DNA of 62,634 bases, counting the filler. It is 10 parts of 10 records of this genome, joined end to end, with 100 filler letters (N's around TTAATTAATTAA, not from the genome) between each part and the next. Parts side by side here need not be neighbours in the genome. Positions count along the whole stretch, not along the records: positions 49,784 to 62,634 come from SRR7504441_14629; 9 more parts are not named here. One strand, given 5' to 3'. Below are positions 3,017 to 62,634 of the stretch, in pieces; position 1 is the stretch's first letter; each line of letters opens with the position of its first letter. The notes beneath the pieces were generated by a model. The model saw only the letters and a list, made by a program, of their open reading frames with translations, did no database searches and was not told where the DNA came from. The translations under genes were made by a program, and so were the position numbers.

Positions 3017-3116
3017 NNNNNNNNNNNNNNNNNNNNNNNNNNNNNNNNNNNNNNNNNNNNTTAATTAATTAANNNNNNNNNNNNNNNNNNNNNNNNNNNN
3101 NNNNNNNNNNNNNNNN
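3017..3116. other. Artificial contig linker (first of nine)
   Basis: N44-TTAATTAATTAA-N44. Identical copies at 7897-7996, 12855-12954, 19042-19141, 22714-22813, 27053-27152, 32799-32898, 45969-46068 and 49684-49783. Confidence 0.98.
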
Positions 3117-7574: not shown

Positions 7575-7996
7575 CCGTTCTAACGACTAAGCGCCCATCA
7601 CCAGGCGCGCCTGCAGCGCCGCACTGCTGGCCAGTGTGGCAGAGATGCGCGATGCCGTTATACGAAGCCTACAGTCGTAGCCGTAGCCGGCTCAGTGCTG
7701 ACCGTTGGGCACGACATGCTGATATCAGCTATCGGTGCACCAGACCGGAGTCGACGACAGAGCCGGACATCCGGGTCGTTCGCAATGCCGCCACACCGGA
7801 GACCGGGCATCGTGGACGACGAGATCGGCACTGGCAAGTCAGACGAGTGCCAAACACCGGCCTCGCTAGGCGAGCATGTAGGCAGAGTCGGCAGCGNNNN
7901 NNNNNNNNNNNNNNNNNNNNNNNNNNNNNNNNNNNNNNNNTTAATTAATTAANNNNNNNNNNNNNNNNNNNNNNNNNNNNNNNNNNNNNNNNNNNN

Positions 7997-12854: not shown

Positions 12855-12954
12855 NNNNNNNNNNNNNNNNNNNNNNNNNNNNNNNNNNNNNNNNNNNNTT
12901 AATTAATTAANNNNNNNNNNNNNNNNNNNNNNNNNNNNNNNNNNNNNNNNNNNN

Positions 12955-18717: not shown

Positions 18718-19341
18718 AATAGTCAAAGCCGCCCGCGCCGCCCGCGAGGAATATAAGGAAACTACGGAGCCCTATAGAAAAATCGATTTTGCGATAGCTC
18801 GGTCTCGTCCCGCGTCGATAATGATTGACTCGCACGCCCCTTCCTTCGAATCCTCCTACGAGTAGCTACTCCCAGCCGGCCTCCGCAGCTCCCGCCCAAT
18901 CAAAACTGCTTAGGCGCGCCGGAAGTCTCATGAGTCTCTCGATCGTGAACCGAGACGATGGAGCACAGCCGCATTATTAGCCGTACCGCCGAGACAACTA
19001 GCATTGAGCGAGAGCCGGCCGGCCGGGCCTTCCAGCGGCTGNNNNNNNNNNNNNNNNNNNNNNNNNNNNNNNNNNNNNNNNNNNNTTAATTAATTAANNN
19101 NNNNNNNNNNNNNNNNNNNNNNNNNNNNNNNNNNNNNNNNNCAGGTTCTCGCTCAGCTCGGCCGACACCATTTGGATCAGAGTTGAAATTCAAACGGGTA
19201 CGGCGTTGGGGCGGCTTAGAGCGTTCCGCAGTTTATTAAACAAGCACAATATTGTGTGCTATACATGTACACAGTGATCAAACTCAAAACAAGTATACAA
19301 TGTCATGTACTGTATGCATTATCATTGAGGCTCCTTGGTAT

Positions 19342-22713: not shown

Positions 22714-22820
22714 NNNNNNNNNNNNNNNNNNNNNNNNNNNNNNNNNNNNNNNNNNNNTTAATTAATTAANNNNNNNNNNNNNNNNNNNNNNNNNNNNNNN
22801 NNNNNNNNNNNNNAGGTGGA

Positions 22821-24548: not shown

Positions 24549-25038
24549 CTAATCCTCGTGCCCTAAGTTGCCCAAGTGAAGACCAAAGTCGAGAGTTGTA
24601 GGTTGTAAAGCTTTTACTTGTCTCCCATGTTGCATCGCTTTGGCCGATGAGGCCCAATCCTTTGACTGCAAGGGATTTTGAAAATCTTGGAGGTTGTGAG
24701 GATTTCTCATCAATCTGGACCGTTGCACCACTACATCCCCATTCAGGTCAATTTCGTCCAAGTTGCGTGTCAGAAATATGCCGTTGCCTTGGCAGCCCCT
24801 CGAAGGCTTGCATATGTAAGTGCGAACCTGCGCATCCCTCATATGTTTGTTGATTTAGTCTCCGCGCCTTCCTATCCTGGGCCTGCTTGTGCAGCTCTGC
24901 AGCATCGGCCGGGAGCACCCATGTCTTTGGATAAAAATTGAACATCCCCGGTGGCAGCGCCTAAGGTGCCTCACGTTGGCCCAACAATGCCGACTGCACC
25001 TTGGACAGGCGGTTTAGGTTACGCGCCAAGCCGTTTTT
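24549..25038 (-). pseudogene. Incomplete tubulin polyglutamylase (TTLL6/13-like) gene
   Basis: KNGLARNLNRLSK|ALPPGMFNFYPKTWVLP...QDRK|VRTYICKPSRGCQGNGIFL...VVQR, with intact introns at 24961-24999 and 24828-24867. The upstream NHFPG and downstream KFDLR/WLLEVN motifs are absent. Confidence 0.75.
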
Positions 25039-26579: not shown

Positions 26580-27259
26580 GCCAGATCCGGAATTCTTCAC
26601 CTTAAAGGCCGGAAATAATGCTCGATCATGAGAGGAAGGCTGTCTCGCGTAACATTGCTTGGGTAGGAACTTCCTTGGTCTTTGGCCTCACTGAACACGG
26701 CCACACTGGAATTTGGGGTATGATGTAGGGTTTGAAATTGTTTATGAAAAAATAAAAAAGATAACTGATTGTTTGTTTCACAATGAGGGGATGGAGGAGA
26801 GATGCAAGGTGGCATCTCTTTGGGCTGAAATCTTTCTTTGCCCAGGATGGAATATTACAAGTCCAGTAGTGTAGGCCAGTGGTCGAGTTTCGCGCCAAAA
26901 CCGAATCGTGGCGTCAAGTGCGGGAGTCTATCTATTGAGGAGAGAGAGTCTTGTCAGGTGGAGGCACCGAAGACCGGACGGGAGGAGTTCCGATCCCTAC
27001 AGTGGGTTGGTTATGGGTTTGGGGCCCGGTCCGCCAGCTCGTTCACCGTGTCNNNNNNNNNNNNNNNNNNNNNNNNNNNNNNNNNNNNNNNNNNNNTTAA
27101 TTAATTAANNNNNNNNNNNNNNNNNNNNNNNNNNNNNNNNNNNNNNNNNNNNGCTCGAGCAGCCGACCGACCCACCCACCGCTCATCGCACTGTCACACC
27201 AGGAGCCCTGCCTCGAATAACTTCGGATAACGGAATTGGGCATCGGGGGGGCTGAGGCG

Positions 27260-32710: not shown

Positions 32711-32898
32711 TCACTTGAACTTTGTACGGGTACGAGTAACATTAACATTAGACCTGATTAGACGCATGAAAATCGGCGGCCCGTCCGGCCCAGTACTCNN
32801 NNNNNNNNNNNNNNNNNNNNNNNNNNNNNNNNNNNNNNNNNNTTAATTAATTAANNNNNNNNNNNNNNNNNNNNNNNNNNNNNNNNNNNNNNNNNNNN

Positions 32899-45968: not shown

Positions 45969-46068
45969 NNNNNNNNNNNNNNNNNNNNNNNNNNNNNNNN
46001 NNNNNNNNNNNNTTAATTAATTAANNNNNNNNNNNNNNNNNNNNNNNNNNNNNNNNNNNNNNNNNNNN

Positions 46069-49683: not shown

Positions 49684-49783
49684 NNNNNNNNNNNNNNNNN
49701 NNNNNNNNNNNNNNNNNNNNNNNNNNNTTAATTAATTAANNNNNNNNNNNNNNNNNNNNNNNNNNNNNNNNNNNNNNNNNNNN

Positions 49784-50389
49784 GCCCCAGCCCGATGCCA
49801 GCCGTGATGCCAGTCCGGGTGCATTAAATGCTGGCCGCCCAAACCAACTGCATGACTGTCCCCTTCGTCGGAGATGTCTCTCTGTGGAAATCACCATCTT
49901 TGCAGTCATTTCGAACGGGAGTTTGTGCACGGGATAGGGAACCATGCACGAGAAGCACCGGATGAGCTTCTTGTATTCTGAGCGTTTCTGGGATCCTGCC
50001 TGTGTCTCAGTCAAGTCATCATCGTCGGCCTCGATTGTGTCAAGTGGCAATGGCACCCCAGATGTTCCCTGCAACCTAAACGCCTTAACCTGCAGCATCC
50101 ATATCTTCCCATCACTGTCCTTCACAAAATCAGCAACTAGCTCGGTGAATTTGACAGGCGCAGGTCCAAGTGTCCTCTCCAGATAAACAACAACTCTCTC
50201 ACACAGCTCAGCGTATTCTTCAATCACGGCTCCACGCTGCTCAAATACAGTGCATGAATCCACTTCTTCAGTATTGGTACAATACCGATCCCTCGGCTCG
50301 ATGCTCTCGTCGTCACAGTAATGCCTGTTTGTGATCTGCCATCCGACCGCGGAGGCATTGGCTCGCCAGAGAGTCCTTGTTATTGCCAC
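49784..50389 (-). CDS. C-terminal portion of an ATP-grasp-like protein (no ATG start of its own)
   Basis: RTLWRANASAVGWQITN...FTELVADFVKDSDGKIWMLQVK resembles the ATP-grasp D-F-x-x-D...W-x-L-[EQ] strand; CxxC follows. Confidence 0.6.
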
Positions 50390-50455
50390 CGTTCGGAGGG
50401 ATCAGCTACAGCTCTGAGGTGCCCAGGCTGCCCCGGCAGGGCTGACCAGGCTCAG

Positions 50456-50880
50456 GTGCTGTATGAGGATAAGAGTGTGAAGCTGGTCCCGCTGACAGGG
50501 ATGTACAAGTTCCTCACCAGCGGCGATTCCGGGCTCAAGTCTGCCCGCCGGTGCGCCCCACCCACCGGGACTGCGTTGACGCTGAGTGTGCAGTCCAAAG
50601 ACTGCCGGCTCTCTGTGGCAGTCGCGTGCGGGCCGTGGAGGACCAAAGCTACGGGTCTGGATCCCCCACACAGTTGTGTACAAGGACACGGACATGCCCA
50701 CTTGGATATACACCAACGCGCACGGGGAGGTGTGCAAGACCACAAATTTCACGGAGCGCCATGTTCTCGAGACTCTGGGTGACCTCACCGGGGATGAGAC
50801 AGCGCCCGTAGCAGTGCTGAAGAAGCCGGACTGGAAGCTGCCAGAGGGTAATGAACTGGGGCTGCTCAGCACAAACGATG
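50456..50880 (+). CDS. Two internal exons of an ATP-grasp-like protein in inverted orientation
   Basis: Acceptor GCTGACCAGGCTCAG|VLYEDK..., internal 43-nt GT-AG intron, VWIPHTVVY..WIYTNAHGEVCK..VAVLKKP; no start codon ahead of the first exon. Confidence 0.6.
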
Positions 50881-50934
50881 CCTGCCTGGGGCACCCTCGA
50901 CTCGCAACGGGACGAGATCTCCGGCTGGAGGCAC

Positions 50935-51156
50935 GCCTCCGTGGTCTCGCCGATCGGGCGGGTGTGCACGCTCAGAGAGCCTCGTTTGGCCAGATTGAGG
51001 CTCTTGGGCTTGCGGGGGGCGATGCTGCTCGGGAGCGGCTTCTCATGCAGCACCGCATCTGCCAGCCTGTCGCCCGGCCCGCCCATCCCCGGCCGCACCG
51101 AGCTCGTCCTCGTCCAGCGCCACCCGCGGCGCGGGCTCGGCCGTGGCAGGCACCAT
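50935..51156 (-). CDS. First two exons of a minus-strand gene (probable N-terminus of the ATP-grasp-like protein)
   Basis: MVPATAEPAPRVALDEDEL|DAVLHEKPLPSS..RPIGETTE with a 40-nt GT-AG intron; head-to-head with the ATG at 51192. Confidence 0.55.
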
Positions 51157-51191: not shown

Positions 51192-52385
51192 ATGAGGGCC
51201 CCCGACAGCACCGCGGGCGAGCTGGACGAGCTCGGGACCCAGCTGGGGAGCGGGCTGGGCCGGGACCTGCAGGCGGCCACCAACGACCTCGCGGCCGCCG
51301 CCCAGGAGACCGCGGCGGCCGCCGCCGCCCTGGAGCGGGCGGGGGGCGGGGATTGGGGGAGGGCGCGGCTGTTGGGCCGGGAGTGCGGGCAGCTCGGGCG
51401 AGAGCTGCGGGAGCTGGTGCGGCAGGTGGACGCCTGTGCGGAGGGCGGGGGGCTGGCCGTCCCGGGGTGGGCCGCTGGTCGGGCCGAGCTGGGCGAGCAG
51501 CTGGAGCTGCTGGAGGGGCCGCTGGGACTGGCCAGGAGCGGCCCAGCAGGCGAGGACAGGCTGGCCCAGCTGGAGGAGCAGAACGAGCTGCTGCAACGGC
51601 AAGTGCGTGAGGCTCACGAGACAATCGCAGATGGAATACACGCAGTGCGGTCTGAGTCGGTCGAGGCAGAGCAGGCGGGGAGGATCTCGGAGCTGCAGCA
51701 GAGGGTGTGGTCTCAGCAGCGGCAGCTGGAGCGACTGGAACTCGAGGGACAGGCGGTGGATCCGCCCGAGTCGGTGCTGGCTGCATGTGCCCGCCAGTGC
51801 AGGCCACGACCCCGAGACAGGGAGCAGGTGAATCGCTCTGGACTGAGGGCACTGCGATGGAACAGAGCCTTGGCAGCCTGTGCTCCGAGATCAGAGCGCT
51901 ATCTGCCAGCGAGCAGCCAGGCGCTGCGCGGGCGGACGCCCTCGGTTCAGCCAGCGGGGCAGGAGAGGCGGAAGAAGTAGTGCGACTCATGGAAGAAAGG
52001 CAAAAGATGCTAGAGACCAAGCTCCAGCTGGGGACGTCACTCGAGCCGATTAAAGCACACCTGGGCGGCTCCAGCCCGGAGGCCAGCTCTGCCGAGCGTA
52101 ATGATGGTTCGAAGGTCGCCCACGACCTTCCGGTGCCTCAAGTGTTGGTGGTTGGGCTTATGGAGGGGCAGGAGCAGCGCGAGCGAATGCCCTCGATCGC
52201 AGAGCGGATGGAAGCCTTGGCTGTGACACAGCGGGTGGTGTGACCCTCTGCGAACAGTGACAGTTGCTTATTGCCGTGTGCTTCTGCAGGATTATGACGC
52301 GGAAGTGGGGCTAGGGCAATCCGCATCAAAGCGGTCAAGAATGCAATACTCGCGGCCAAGCAAGGCACGCCATGGAGGACTTTAG
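51192..52385 (+). CDS. Hypothetical coiled-coil protein
   Basis: Long Glu/Leu/Ala heptad-rich ORF, then small exons. Confidence 0.55.
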
Positions 52386-57497: not shown

Positions 57498-59368
57498 ATG
57501 CGGCGGCTCTGGCTGGTGGCAGTGGCGTTGGCGCTGGGATGGGCGGACGGGGCCCGGGCCAACAAGGCGCGGTACTACCGGCCGAGCGCCGAGGAGTTCG
57601 ACCAGGACAAGGAGTTCATCAGGTCCAAGATCGGGATCAGTTCCGAGGCGGGCGGGCGGGCCGAGCCGAGCGAGCGGCCGGCAGGTGCCGGACCGGTTGG
57701 CCAAAGTGTCGCGGGAGACTTTCGCCGAGTACTTCCAGGCGGGCAAGCCGCTGATCGTGACCGACCTGGCCGAGGACTGGCCGATGCGCAACTGGACCTG
57801 CAGCTCGGTGGCTGACGAGTTCGCGGACGAGACGGTGCGGGCGCTCGGGGCAGCGAGGGAGGCGGGACAGGTGATGGTGTGGAGCTACCAGGAAGGCTCC
57901 CGGCAGCCCAAGCACTACAAGCTGCGCGACACAAAGCGCTGGCAGTCGGTCCGGATGCGGCAGGAACCCACCGACGACCCGGCGGCCCCGGAGCTGCTCT
58001 CTTTCCACTGGTATCCGGTGCAGATGGGCTTCGAGGGCGACGCCGACGAGGATCGGCTGAACGACGGGGACGACTACCACTCTACCCTGGCCTCGCCCAA
58101 GGTGATTGCGGGTCTGGCCACCGGACGAGTCGGGCACAGGCGCGGAGGAAGATTAAGAGTTCTTACAAGATGCCGTATTTCATAGAGCAGAACCCTATGA
58201 ACCTGGAGTTCACCAAGGAGCGGATAGAGGTGCCCCCCGGTCCGCGCCCGCTGCCAGCCGATGGCAGTTCTTCCTAGGGATGCCAGGCTCCGGTGCTGCG
58301 GTGCACGCCGACGCCGTATGCGAGGCCATCTTCTCTGTGCAACTCTCAGGTGGCGGCCGGCCTGTGACTGGCCCACCCGGTGCAGGCACCAAGCAGTGGC
58401 GTCTGTCCCCGCTGCCGCCCTACACGCACGCCACCCAGCGCCCGGGCAAAATGAACCAGCCGAACGGTGCTGGCTCTGGCCAGGCCGGCATCTGACAGCT
58501 GGCAGGTCGCGAGTGGCAGCCTAGCTACACCTTCGAGCTGCAGCCGGGCGAAGCCATCTTCTTCCCGCCCTCCTTCATGCACGAGACCCGTGCGAGCGCC
58601 TTCGCCGACTGAGCTGATTAACAAGACAGGCAACACTGGGGACGTGTGTGCTCTGTCAGCCTCCCTCCAGATCCGGTGGCCGCCCAGCCCCGGGCCGGGG
58701 TAAGTGTGGGGGCAGGTATCCGTTCCCGGTGGGCCACATCCGAGATTTCTCGCAGCGGCTGCTCAACTCGGTGCAACCATTGGTGCGTTGATTGCCGATG
58801 TTTGTCTGCAGCAAGAGGTGAGCTTCTGCTTTGAACACTGGGCCCCTTTCGTGACGGGGCACAAGGACGGAGTGCGCGAGATGTACCGCCAGATCTACAA
58901 GTGCCGCCAGCCCGCGCCCCGCTCATCCGGCGGCAGGGGAGGCAGCCCGGAGCAGGTCGCGGGAGCCTTCTTTGATGAGATAGACGCTAATGGTGACGGA
59001 CTGGCTAGTCAGCGCGAGAAGGAGAAGCACTTTGACGGTGTGATTCGTGAGCACCGGGGGCAAGTAGAGTTCATGGCGAGACAGGCGGGCAGTGCGGCCG
59101 GCGGGGCTGAGCTGTGCGGCAGGAGGCGGACGATTGGTTTGTGTTCAATGATGTCAACAGAGACGGCAAAGTGAGCAGGGACGAGTACGTAGAGCTGCAG
59201 CTTCAGATCCAACGGAACTACTCGACGGCGATTGACCAGGGCGCGTGCGACGAGGACGGCTGCCACGCGCACGTGAAGCAGAACGTACTGGCGGCCAAGA
59301 TGAACGGGATTGAGTCAGCGTTCGTATCGAATAATATTTACAACGACCAAGGATACGACGAGATGTAG
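57498..59368 (+). CDS. Secretory-pathway JmjC/cupin protein with two EF-hands
   Basis: Signal peptide MRRLWLVAVALALG; GKPLIVTD..WP..W, GSGAAVHAD..SVQLSG|TKQWRL, LQPGEAIFFPPSFMHET; DANGDGLA, DVNRDGKVSRDEY; ends GYDEM*. Confidence 0.8.
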
Positions 59369-59444
59369 CCGCGACAAAGCGTGCAATGCAGTTGGCGATA
59401 GTATACATACAAAGCCCTCCGGGTTTATTGTAATATCGTTTCGG

Positions 59445-60665
59445 CTAGGCCCCGATCTCGCACTGCGGAGCAGCCAGGCTTCCCGCCTCGGCCTCTGGCA
59501 AGAACAACTCGACCATTTGAAGCAGCCAACTCAGCCGCCGCAGGCTCCGCCTATACTCTCCCTGGTTCGGGTCCACCGGCTGCGCGCTCGCCCGCTCGGC
59601 CACCTTCTCCGGGGTCTCCCCGGGCAGCTTGTAGCTGATCGCCCACCTCATATAGTCCAAGGTGGCCAGCTTGAATAGCCGAACTGTCTCGCCAAAGCCC
59701 CACTTCCTAGCTTGGCGGAGCTCATCGGAGAGCGCCGCCACAAACCGTTGGTGGTACTCGCGCAGGGTCTGCTCCCAGTTGTCGCAGCAGTCGTCCGAGG
59801 CGGCGGTGGCCAAGAAATAGATCAGATCTTGCCCCGGAACATTCCAGCCGGTCCACTGCCAATCTATCACACACACAAGCTCGGTCCCGGGCTGCACGAA
59901 GATGTTCCCGGCCTTGAAATCCCCGTGCGACAGCGTCTGCCAGCCCGCCTCTCCGATCAGCCGATCCACCTCCACTGCCACGCTGTGAAGCCGTTCACCC
60001 AACCGCTCAGACGGCAGCCGAAACAGCTCTGGACTGGCGGAGCTGAACGCATCCCGGAAGCGCGCGTACCCGGCCGGCAGCCCGTCGAGCTCGCCGGCCG
60101 GCCGGTTGGGCAGCGCGGTGTGCCCCCCGTGCGCCCAGAGCTCTAGAGCGGCCCGGTCCTCAGCCAGCTCGAAGCCGAACGCGTGGAACCGAGCGAGCCA
60201 TCCGAGCGAGGCCAGGCTGAGCGGGCGGTCGAAGGCGGGCATCTGCGCGAACTCGGGCGTGGCCGCCTCCATCACCAACAGCAGCCTGAACGGCTCCGGC
60301 TCTGTCTCCGCCAAGTACAGCGCCGGGATCCGCACACCAGCCGCGGCCAGCCGCCCGGCGAGTCCACGCAGGAATGCGGCCTCGTTAGTGTACGAGCGGA
60401 TAGTCCGGAGCCGCTTGGGCTCGGGCACACCGGCCAGGGCCTCGGAGGGGTCCACATACTTGATTAGTGCGCTGGGAGGCCCCGGGCGGTCGGGCGGCCA
60501 CTGGAGGGCCAGCTGGGCGATGAGTGCGCCGGAGTAGCCCATCTTGATCACTGGGCCCGCCAACGAGGCGGAGGCCACTCCCGGGAAGAGCGGGGCCACC
60601 AGTTCCTGCGGGGTCACCGTCAACTCGCCCGGCGGCACCCGCGAGAGCAGCGTCGGCTCTGCCAT
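59445..60665 (-). CDS. Aminoglycoside/choline/ecdysteroid kinase-like phosphotransferase, intronless
   Basis: SYTNEAAF, WLARFHA, TLSHGDFKAGNIF, VIDWQW, QDLIYF; start taken at MAEPTLL. Confidence 0.85.
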   Translation of the reverse strand: MAEPTLLSRVPPGELTVTPQELVAPLFPGVASASLAGPVIKMGYSGALIAQLALQWPPDRPGPPSALIKYVDPSEALAGVPEPKRLRTIRSYTNEAAFLRGLAGRLAAAGVRIPALYLAETEPEPFRLLLVMEAATPEFAQMPAFDRPLSLASLGWLARFHAFGFELAEDRAALELWAHGGHTALPNRPAGELDGLPAGYARFRDAFSSASPELFRLPSERLGERLHSVAVEVDRLIGEAGWQTLSHGDFKAGNIFVQPGTELVCVIDWQWTGWNVPGQDLIYFLATAASDDCCDNWEQTLREYHQRFVAALSDELRQARKWGFGETVRLFKLATLDYMRWAISYKLPGETPEKVAERASAQPVDPNQGEYRRSLRRLSWLLQMVELFLPEAEAGSLAAPQCEIGA

Positions 60666-60756
60666 CTTGTTGAAGTCCGTTATGATGGCTGTTGGGTGGG
60701 ATTCCTCCAAATGTCGTGCACGGGAGGTTGCTGTTGGCAGCTCCTCGGGCGGCATC

Positions 60757-61630
60757 ATGGTTGGCACCGAGGTAGAGCGGGACTGACCGGTCGGCGGCAG
60801 GGAAGGCTGGTCTGTCATCACTCAAACTTCCAAGGCTTCTGCGGCAAATGCTCGGCCGACGGCCGGAACTGCGTGTATCTCGAAGACTATCAGACCGTGG
60901 TATGCCACCACATGAGCTTCAAGGGCTGCTGCGGCAAGTGTGTGGTATGCGGCGACTCGGCCGGGGCTGAACGGGCACCGGCAGGTTGACGGTGGCAACT
61001 GCAGGATCGTTGACAAAGCAACCTGCGCTCCCTGCGCCCCGACGTACGGCGGCAGCACCACCACCTACGCCCCGCCTCCGCCGGCCCCGACGCCGTGCTT
61101 TGGAGGGAGCAGCTCTTACACCCAGTCCTCCACCACGTACGGACCCGGCGGCTCGACCACGACCTATACCACGTCTTACGGAGGGGCCCCGCCTCCACCC
61201 CCACCGCAAGTCAACTACGGCCAGCCCCAGCCAGCATATGGGCAGCCGCAGCCAGCATATGGGCAGCCGCAGTACGCAGCTCCGAACATGAACTGCAACA
61301 ACTGCGTTAATTGCACCGGATCGCGGTACTGCAACGGTATCAGTCGAGGCTGGTACAGCCGTCTGACCGGGGGGCAGGCTGCACTGGGTGCACCAACTGC
61401 AACGGCTGCACTGGCTGCACCAACTGCACAAACTGCACCGGTGCGGCCGGGCAAGGGCCGTCTGACCGGGGGCAGGGTGCACTGGGTGTGTCAACTGCCA
61501 CGGGCTGAGCAATGCGAGCAACCAAGTCAACGTGGGCCAGCCGAGCTACAGCCAGCCGCAGCCGAGCTATGGCCAGCCACAGCCAGTGTACAACAGCGGT
61601 TACGGTACAACCTACCAGGGGCAATATTGA
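60757..61630 (+). CDS. Cys-rich and Pro/Gln/Tyr-rich protein with CxxC triplet repeats
   Basis: M|GRLVCHHSNFQGFCGKC..VCHHMSFKGCCGKCV|..YGQPQPA repeats..NCNNCVNCTGSRYCN|GCTGCTNCNGCTGCTNCTNCT|GCTGCVNC; four 35-41-nt introns give one frame. Confidence 0.75.
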
Positions 61631-61818
61631 ATCGGGATCTGCGTACAAATCTAGGTCGCACAATCATACGAGCACGTACCTCAGTCCATAGGTACCGCTA
61701 TCAAAGCACGGTAAAGCCTCGGAGCCCCCGGTATACCTACAGACTGGTATGCAATGCATAGACTTTCATTAAATCTAGTCTAAACCCAACCGGTATTTTC
61801 TAAACACAAATAGTACTT

Positions 61819-62505
61819 TCACGTCAGACAGTCTACTTGCCCCGTGTTCCGGTGAGCGATGTAGTCAATCACAACGTTCCAGCAAAGGTTGGCCAGTGCC
61901 ATCGCCCGCACCCGGCCGGCCGGCTTAACCAGCCTGAAGTTCACCCACATGAACGGCAGCCAAAAGCCGGTCCCCATGGTGTAGGCCTCCCACCACTCCC
62001 GGCGCAAGTTGGCACCCGCCCGCTCAAGGCTGCCCCCTGATAGCAGCTCCACCCCGTAAAAGTAGCTCGGGGTGTAGATCAGCCCGACGTGCCCATTGTC
62101 CAGCACAGCACAGCCCAGCGCGTGCCATCCTGTGTCCAGCGTGGCCATCCGTCGCCACCCGGCCGCCCCGGCAGCGGCCTTCACTAGGTGCGGGTAGACT
62201 CTAAAGAGCCAGTGCAGGAACCCACCCACGTACAGTGTGCTGAAGGCGGTGACCCCGAACACCCGGTTCCAGTCCAGCCGCCCCCGGCCGCCCAGTTCGA
62301 TGTACTGACAGGCGAGGTCGCCGGCCAAGCCCAACCCCGTCGCCGCCGCCATGTCCTGGGCCAGCGCGCGCTTGCACAGAGGCAGCACCGGCACCGGCAG
62401 ACCGGCGGCGCATAACCGGCCGCCGAGCGGCACCAGCCTGGAGCGCAGCAGCCCAGCCCGGCGGCTCACGCCGAGCATTTTCCGGTGGTGCACGCGTTGA
62501 CTCAT
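61819..62505 (-). CDS. Mpv17/PMP22 family membrane protein with Arg-rich presequence
   Basis: GLAGDLACQ..LDWNR..LHWLF..FWLPFMWVNFRLVKP..RV..ANLCWN. Confidence 0.85.
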   Translation of the reverse strand: MSQRVHHRKMLGVSRRAGLLRSRLVPLGGRLCAAGLPVPVLPLCKRALAQDMAAATGLGLAGDLACQYIELGGRGRLDWNRVFGVTAFSTLYVGGFLHWLFRVYPHLVKAAAGAAGWRRMATLDTGWHALGCAVLDNGHVGLIYTPSYFYGVELLSGGSLERAGANLRREWWEAYTMGTGFWLPFMWVNFRLVKPAGRVRAMALANLCWNVVIDYIAHRNTGQVDCLT

Positions 62506-62634
62506 CAGATCAATGTCCGTTATTATTCCGACCTAAAAACAAGATAGGGAGGGAGGGCGCTGAGCGGCACAACTTGGCATGGATAGCTTGGTGAGCCCCG
62601 TGGCCGAGCTGCATCTGGCCCGGCCAGGCACCGC

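Follow-up and report, generated by a model that had tools for sequence, protein, structure and literature searches.

The published rearrangements that most closely resemble the locus described here are the inverted chimeras generated by MDA. According to the analysis of Lasken & Stockwell 2007 (PMC1855051), 406 of 475 MDA chimeras (85%) were inversions, most of which joined sites separated by less than 10 kb, and the chimeras characterized there were primed at complementarities of 2-21 nt and came with deletions. A second type of related event is the template-switch micro-inversion (PMC5453318, PMC8755829), in which a switch and a return at nearby inverted microhomologies lead to a short inverted segment with local indels; the examples treated in these two reports mostly comprise tens of bases and stem from primates. 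In addition, coding segments on the opposite strand that are flanked by inverted repeats occur in invertible segments of the Hin/Gin type and in the scrambled genes of ciliates. On the protein level, the closest described system is DC4 (dDC4/TbDC65) of the trypanosomatid outer-dynein-arm docking complex. dDC4, a docking subunit, is described in PMC7617938 as resembling ATP-grasp proteins in structure and as required for swimming at normal speed.

We analyzed a stretch of 62,634 nt from a marine assembly, in the following called the window, which consists of ten contigs of 3-13 kb each. Because the window is a concatenation of contigs separated by linkers (Table 1), adjacency across the linkers has no meaning. 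The DNA is GC-rich and eukaryotic, with short GT..AG introns, and it includes genes for a P4-ATPase, KIN17, Nop52, a protein kinase, and ribosomal protein S19e as well as a piece of a TTL gene. The last contig, which extends from 49784 to the end of the window, contains a conserved eukaryotic gene that has its middle ~465-470 nt on the opposite strand and lacks ~43 coding nt. The strand switch is present in the sequence, far above the chance level, and lies 600-1100 nt from the left end of the contig.

With the inverted MDA chimeras the locus shares an inversion between sites less than 1 kb apart, a complementarity of 10-15 nt, and a small deletion. A single MDA chimera has one junction, whereas here two junctions are found at the same repeat pair, with the flanks in place and a third lesion 25 nt away. 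The template-switch micro-inversions are similar in their combination of a short inverted segment and local indels, but here the segment has a length of ~465 nt and belongs to a constrained gene of a marine protist. In contrast to the Hin/Gin-type segments and the ciliate scrambled genes, the repeat is short and imperfect, no recombinase was found among the ORFs scanned, and neither orientation yields an intact frame; furthermore, this is a GC-rich genome with the standard code and with spliceosomal introns.

One conserved gene in pieces on two strands

The minus-strand ORF 49784-50401 was compared with a library of 1.84 billion proteins, and 143 homologues of the C-terminal part (C-part) were retrieved, the best of which (P0001, 984 aa) is 50% identical. 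The 85 of them with at least 300 aa were mapped onto the window with tblastn. The C-part on the minus strand (49784-50389) was matched by 83 of the 85 homologues (E<1e-5), and 38 also matched the plus strand at 50400-51060 (E<1e-3). In all 38 cases the residues that match the plus-strand piece are N-terminal to those that match the minus-strand piece. None of the 85 homologues matched the minus strand inside 50420-50900.

The best homologue, P0001, covers all parts of the gene. Its residues 7-33 match the spliced start exons on the minus strand (gene residues 6-33; 16 of 27 identical, with a score that none of 2000 shuffles attained), residues 78-123 and 128-209 match the plus strand at 50414-50551 and 50631-50879, respectively (joint E 6e-24), and residues 239-426 match the minus strand at 50380-49799 (E 1e-55). 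One orthologue therefore spans, in this order, minus-, plus-, plus-, and minus-strand pieces. The match to the start exons is continuous over ..DEDEL / DAVLH.. because the 40-nt intron between them is removed; together, the two exons comprise 74 codons without a stop. A profile of 24 family members likewise matched both middle exons on the plus strand and the C-part on the minus strand (nodes and E values in Table 1). When the middle was re-inverted in a script, a single profile match over nodes 71-396 with 304 bits was obtained, which also includes middle exon A.

An earlier note on this DNA, made from the letters alone, had proposed that the pieces form one ATP-grasp-like protein whose order is restored only when the middle is flipped, and had suggested an alignment to homologues to place the breakpoints. 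The uniform order in the 38 homologues and the 304-bit match bear out the first point, and the alignment both places the breakpoints and assigns the three pieces to the same protein, not to different ones. The start exons and the C-terminal part are on the minus strand as proposed, but their limits had to be revised: the start region was given as 51156 to ~50935 and is now resolved into two exons, 51156-51099 and 51058-50895, and the minus-strand coding sequence resumes after the middle at 50418, not at ~50390. The latter follows from the alignment of L-R-A-V-A-D-P-S (50418-50395) with the homologues. P0002, for example, has ..LLDTDD followed by LRAVTTSG where the window has the end of middle exon B and L-R-A-V, respectively, and the family has [DE]-L-[RK]-x-[LV] right after the position of middle exon B. 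A further peptide, V-C-A-E-Q on the minus strand at ~50868-50882, was considered and is taken as chance; it is the antisense of the strongly matching G-N-E-L-G-L-L-S-T.

Table 1. Positions of the parts of the rearranged gene and of the linkers in the window
Feature	Position	Strand	Remarks
Start exon 1	51099-51156	-	58 nt; ATG 51156-51154; spliced to exon 2 matches P0001
Intron between start exons 1 and 2	51059-51098	-	40 nt, GT..AG; read from the sequence
Start exon 2	50895-51058	-	End ..SSRCESR aligns with family R-C-S-[FY], just upstream of the middle-exon match
Inverted repeat, right arm	50884-50898	.	Right breakpoint zone
15 nt after the last homologous middle codon (..N-D)	50880-50894	+	Two readings (see text)
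Middle exon B	50594-50879	+	..WIPHTVVYKDT..AVLKKP..GNELGLLSTND; profile nodes 98-183, E 1e-28
Intron between middle exons A and B	50551-50593	+	43 nt, GT..AG, after KSARR; spliced out in an RNA contig
Middle exon A	50456-50550	+	VLYEDK..KSARR; profile nodes 72-95, weak when searched alone
Intron-like stretch before middle exon A	50419-50455	+	37 nt, GT..AG; 5' GTGCCC, CTGAC branch-like site, CAG end
Inverted repeat, left arm	50416-50428	.	Left breakpoint zone
Coding remnant L-R-A-V-A-D-P-S	50395-50418	-	Expected directly after the end of middle exon B
Deletion site with frameshift	50390-50394	-	~43 nt (40-49) absent
C-part, VAITRTLW..DFVKDSDGKIWMLQVK..	49784-50389	-	Open frame into the contig end; profile nodes 211-396, E 5e-63
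Artificial linker N44-TTAATTAATTAA-N44	49684-49783	.	Marks the contig end; one of nine identical linkers in the window
Identical linkers, all nine	3017-3116, 7897-7996, 12855-12954, 19042-19141, 22714-22813, 27053-27152, 32799-32898, 45969-46068, 49684-49783		

Breakpoints, lost segment, and condition of the gene

The inverted block extends from about 50419/50429 to 50879/50891, and both of its ends lie inside an imperfect inverted repeat of 13-15 nt. The repeat consists of the end of exon 2 plus the 5' end of the following intron, GTGCCC(C)AGGC, and of the reverse complement thereof; read on the minus strand, its right arm comprises the last nucleotides of exon 2 followed by 11 nt from the start of the intron-like GTGCCCC... 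The junction zones had been set from homology before complementarity was scored. Their complementarity of 10.5 compares with a null mean of 5.7 (sd 1.3) and was reached by 0.46% of 5000 same-spaced window pairs. A long inverted duplication was not found in the window, and confusion of the assembly through a long repeat was discarded, as no inverted repeat of at least 28 nt is present near the site.

Three junction pairs had been put forward in the earlier note, and the one at the imperfect inverted repeat fits. Re-inversion there generates a GT..AG intron of 37/38 nt that separates exon 2 from middle exon A and whose removal links ..CESR with VLYEDK in frame; according to the family alignment, no residue is lost at this join. 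The TTGT/ACAA pair would discard 50381-50418, which is homologous coding sequence of the minus strand (VAI.., LRAV..), and with the GATC/GATC pair the last part of start exon 2 would be flipped, a part that has its family match on the minus strand. At the right junction, the nucleotides 50880-50894 either are original coding sequence for five additional residues in front of L-R-A-V or represent filler that was copied there. With breakpoints at 50418|50419 and 50879|50880, which leave out these 15 nt, the re-inverted gene scores 303.6 bits, and with a crossover inside the repeat, which includes them, it scores 299.7 bits, values that do not tell the two sub-models apart.

Re-inversion alone does not mend the gene, because the ~43-nt gap and the frameshift remain. 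Between ..A-D-P-S and V-A-I-T-R-T-L-W the window has 5 nt, where homologues have 16-22 codons, and the frame of the C-part is one base off from the L-R-A-V frame. The absent segment includes the family motif Q-[KQ]-[FYL]-[VIL], the Q of which is invariant in the family alignment (A1). In the re-inverted reading, 17 profile positions (nodes ~192-208), including Q-K-F-V, are deleted. The possibility that the segment is located elsewhere in the window was rejected, since a search of the window in all six frames gave no match. The recorded copy is therefore not an intact member of the family, in agreement with the earlier suspicion that a Q-x-[FY]-[IV] motif is missing and that sequence has been lost.

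Outside of the three lesions the gene is in good condition. The 209-214 plus 202 codons (~1.2 kb) are free of stops and frameshifts, and the three introns have kept GT..AG. Both plus-strand introns that had been pointed out earlier were recovered, i.e. the intron-like stretch of 37 nt and the 43-nt intron after KSARR; RNA confirms only the latter among the three. The introns of 37, 43, and 40 nt have a 5' GTGC and a CAG end in common, and a TGAC branch-like motif is found 10-15 nt before the 3' AG in the 37- and 43-nt introns (CGAC in the 40-nt intron). These common features may represent an intron signature of the organism.

To this gene we compared public marine data. Fourteen runs from ten studies contain 5-12% of the sampled words, and four of them (two DNA, two RNA) were compared with the gene in detail. 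Their contigs cover 49837-50177, 50509-50743, and 50611-50846 and span neither 50390-50455 nor 50880-50895. A DNA contig (X1) matches 50611-50846 with two differences, and another contig (X5) matches 49837-50177 with four differences, three of them synonymous and one a T to S exchange. A metatranscriptome contig of 192 nt (X6 record 15; two differences, 99% identity) matches 50509-50549 and 50593-50743 and thus skips the 43-nt intron. Altogether, four of the five in-gene differences are synonymous third-position changes in the frames proposed on both strands, and the fifth is the T to S exchange. The gene is thus under constraint and in use in nature, and the lesions are either very young or not biological.

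The GC3 values point in the same direction. In the restored order of the pieces they fall steadily (0.95, 0.89, 0.81, 0.69, 0.55), which is not the case in the recorded order, and the flip is therefore recent or not biological. A colinear protein of the same species was not found in protein word searches: the search with middle exon B against longer and similar-length proteins gave nothing, and the C-part retrieved only P0144 (52% identity) among longer proteins. A scan of metagenome contigs with the C-part revealed one distant locus only (L001, 42% over 31 residues).

Origin of the rearrangement

We favor, with some reservation, an origin outside of the organism, namely a double template switch at the inverted repeat while the DNA was amplified or assembled. 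In the underlying gene, all parts would be on the minus strand: exon 1, the 40-nt intron, exon 2, the 37/38-nt intron, middle exon A, the 43-nt intron, and middle exon B, which would run straight into the Q-K-F-V segment and then the C-part. The end of middle exon B contains a stretch of which the 5' end of the 37/38-nt intron, GTGCCC(C)AGGC, is nearly the reverse complement. The 3' end of a growing strand that had just copied one arm could then anneal to the other arm on the opposite strand, the ~465-nt middle would be copied backwards, and a switch back at the same repeat would leave a clean inversion as the net outcome. A third slip nearby would remove the ~43 nt. We infer that no cell was involved and that such switches took place in vitro or in silico, through phi29-type amplification or through assembly.

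Several observations are in line with a copying artefact. The coding sequence is intact outside of the lesions, the re-inverted reading gives one match, the gene is constrained and spliced in nature, and only in the restored order does GC3 fall steadily. Both breakpoints are located in one repeat, which is the substrate needed for strand-switch priming, and three lesions are clustered within 500 nt; a contig end lies 600 nt away, and the contigs of this assembly measure 3-13 kb. The lesions resemble the MDA chimeras characterized in PMC1855051: the middle exons are inverted relative to both flanks and at most 500 nt away from them (published limit, less than 10 kb), and the imperfect complementarity of 13-15 nt at both junction zones (p about 0.005) is within the published range. 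On the other hand, two switches at the same repeat are required for a net inversion and yet another event for the deletion, where one MDA chimera accounts for a single junction. The colinear form was not seen directly, since no contig in the four runs crosses either junction. In addition, the remainder of the window gives no hint of chimerism: all four other genes with a Pfam model split over several ORFs (P4-ATPase, protein kinase, KIN17, and Nop52) are colinear. A pure assembly error is hard to explain, because a repeat of 13-15 nt is too short to confuse an assembler with a k of at least 21. The earlier note had judged a chimera to be at least as likely as a biological origin, and our preference for an artefact agrees with this. 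If correct, the locus illustrates cleanly that a short inverted repeat is able to cause a full two-junction inversion within a gene in an environmental eukaryote assembly, and it is a warning for gene calling in assemblies of this kind, which would predict the gene as fragments on both strands.

A real and recent mutation in the sequenced cell or lineage is the less probable, yet serious, alternative. Template switching or repair at the repeat would have flipped the middle and deleted ~43 nt, and the product would be a dead allele, with the gene still functional in the wider population. The contig is smooth through both junctions, no other chimeras were seen in the window (all four multi-piece genes are colinear), and an inversion with a nearby deletion would fit one complex replication event. 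Living cells are known to produce micro-inversions flanked by short inverted repeats as well as clustered template-switch mutations, as documented for the cases in PMC5453318 and PMC8755829. However, the gene is under purifying selection at ~1% divergence and its spliced transcript occurs in nature, there is no secondary decay over ~1.2 kb of coding sequence, and a gene-killing variant would have to dominate the haplotypes in the source material. If the mutation were real, a widespread marine protist would offer a natural micro-inversion at a stage at which decay has not yet begun, which would be useful for the study of template-switch mutagenesis outside of model organisms.

A functional arrangement is very improbable, be it a reversible DNA switch at the inverted repeat, a scrambled gene as in ciliates for which the repeat serves as pointer, or trans-splicing after the plus-strand exons have been transcribed separately. 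The repeat is exactly where pointers or crossover sites would be expected, and the middle exons retain a complete acceptor-side intron and are transcribed and spliced in the plus sense. These readings fail because the frame is still broken after re-inversion, a donor is lacking, and no recombinase was found in the scanned part of the contig. Neither orientation gives an intact product, as the re-inverted form has the frameshift and lacks the 17 conserved positions including Q-K-F-V. Behind middle exon B there is no GT at 50880-50881 nor, in a usable frame, in the next 15 nt that could serve as a trans-splicing donor. Furthermore, the repeat is short and imperfect. No domain of a recombinase, integrase, or transposase was detected with Pfam in 430 of the 474 window ORFs of at least 70 aa, a set that on this contig reaches up to 59012 and leaves out 30 ORFs at 59012-62591; 14 ORFs of the flipped-gene region were also outside of this set, and three of these were scanned separately. 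For these reasons, the invertible switch, the scrambled gene, and the antisense-exon trans-splicing considered in the earlier note find no support.

It is likewise a long shot that a real inversion exists as a polymorphism in a marine picoeukaryote population, with the repeat, formed by the 5' end of an intron and a coding stretch 465 nt downstream, letting replication flip the middle exons back and forth. In that case, the ~43-nt gap would either belong to one allele or have arisen separately as an artefact, and the gene would have a eukaryotic recombinase-free on/off switch in a putatively flagellum-associated ATP-grasp-like protein. That the pieces are fragments of two paralogous genes, placed head to head by chance, is close to refuted: the middle piece and the C-part do run apart from a common point, with different GC values (0.59 vs 0.52), but the pieces are complementary, ordered, and non-overlapping (profile nodes 72-183 vs 211-396), the start exons, located on the right side of the middle piece, match the N-terminus of the same orthologue, the join between start exons and middle loses no residue, and the GC3 gradient is continuous in the restored order.

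The gene family and its neighborhood

The gene belongs to an unnamed, conserved, and widespread eukaryotic family, which by profile comparison is related to the ATP-grasp-like dynein docking protein DC4. Its members have 700-1400 aa, two conserved C-x-x-C pairs, and a long C-terminal part, and there is no Pfam model. None of the four pieces of the gene had a Pfam match above the threshold; the best was ATPgrasp_YheCD with E 0.08 and 12.6 bits, compared with a cut-off of 26.8. The same is true for all nine full-length homologues tested, for which only one weak Cep120-like match in the C-terminal part was obtained at E<=0.01. In the ESM Atlas, only unnamed eukaryotic clusters were found, mostly from ciliates, with a score of 0.83.

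In contrast, a profile of 22 members (A1) retrieved dDC4 (9e78, E 1.8e-12) and TbDC65 (9e5c, E 4.5e-5) from the PDB. The likeness comprises the region P-D-T-I-V .. Q-K-F .. D-F-x-K-D .. W-L, whereas the extra C-x-x-C pairs and the long C-terminal part distinguish the family from DC4. The label "ATP-grasp-like" is reasonable because of the match to dDC4 and the ATP-grasp likeness described for that protein in PMC7617938. A flagellar role of the gene may be suspected from this relationship. Whether the inversion is an artefact or real, this DC4-related family deserves a name. A bona fide TTL-type ATP-grasp gene is also represented in the window, by an ORF piece at 24552-24854 on the minus strand (PF03133, E 2e-5), which lies on another contig and is unrelated to the flipped gene.

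The neighbor of the flipped gene is a divergently oriented coiled-coil gene. It contains, at 51290-51351, a GC-rich coding repeat of the GCC/GCG type, which draws many unrelated environmental contigs with less than 90% identity and loose ends on both sides; the contig depth at this position is no evidence for the organism. Only 35 nt separate the ATG of the flipped gene (51156-51154, minus strand) from the first ATG of the coiled-coil ORF (51192-51194, plus strand), so that, if both starts are real, the two genes would share an extremely short upstream region.
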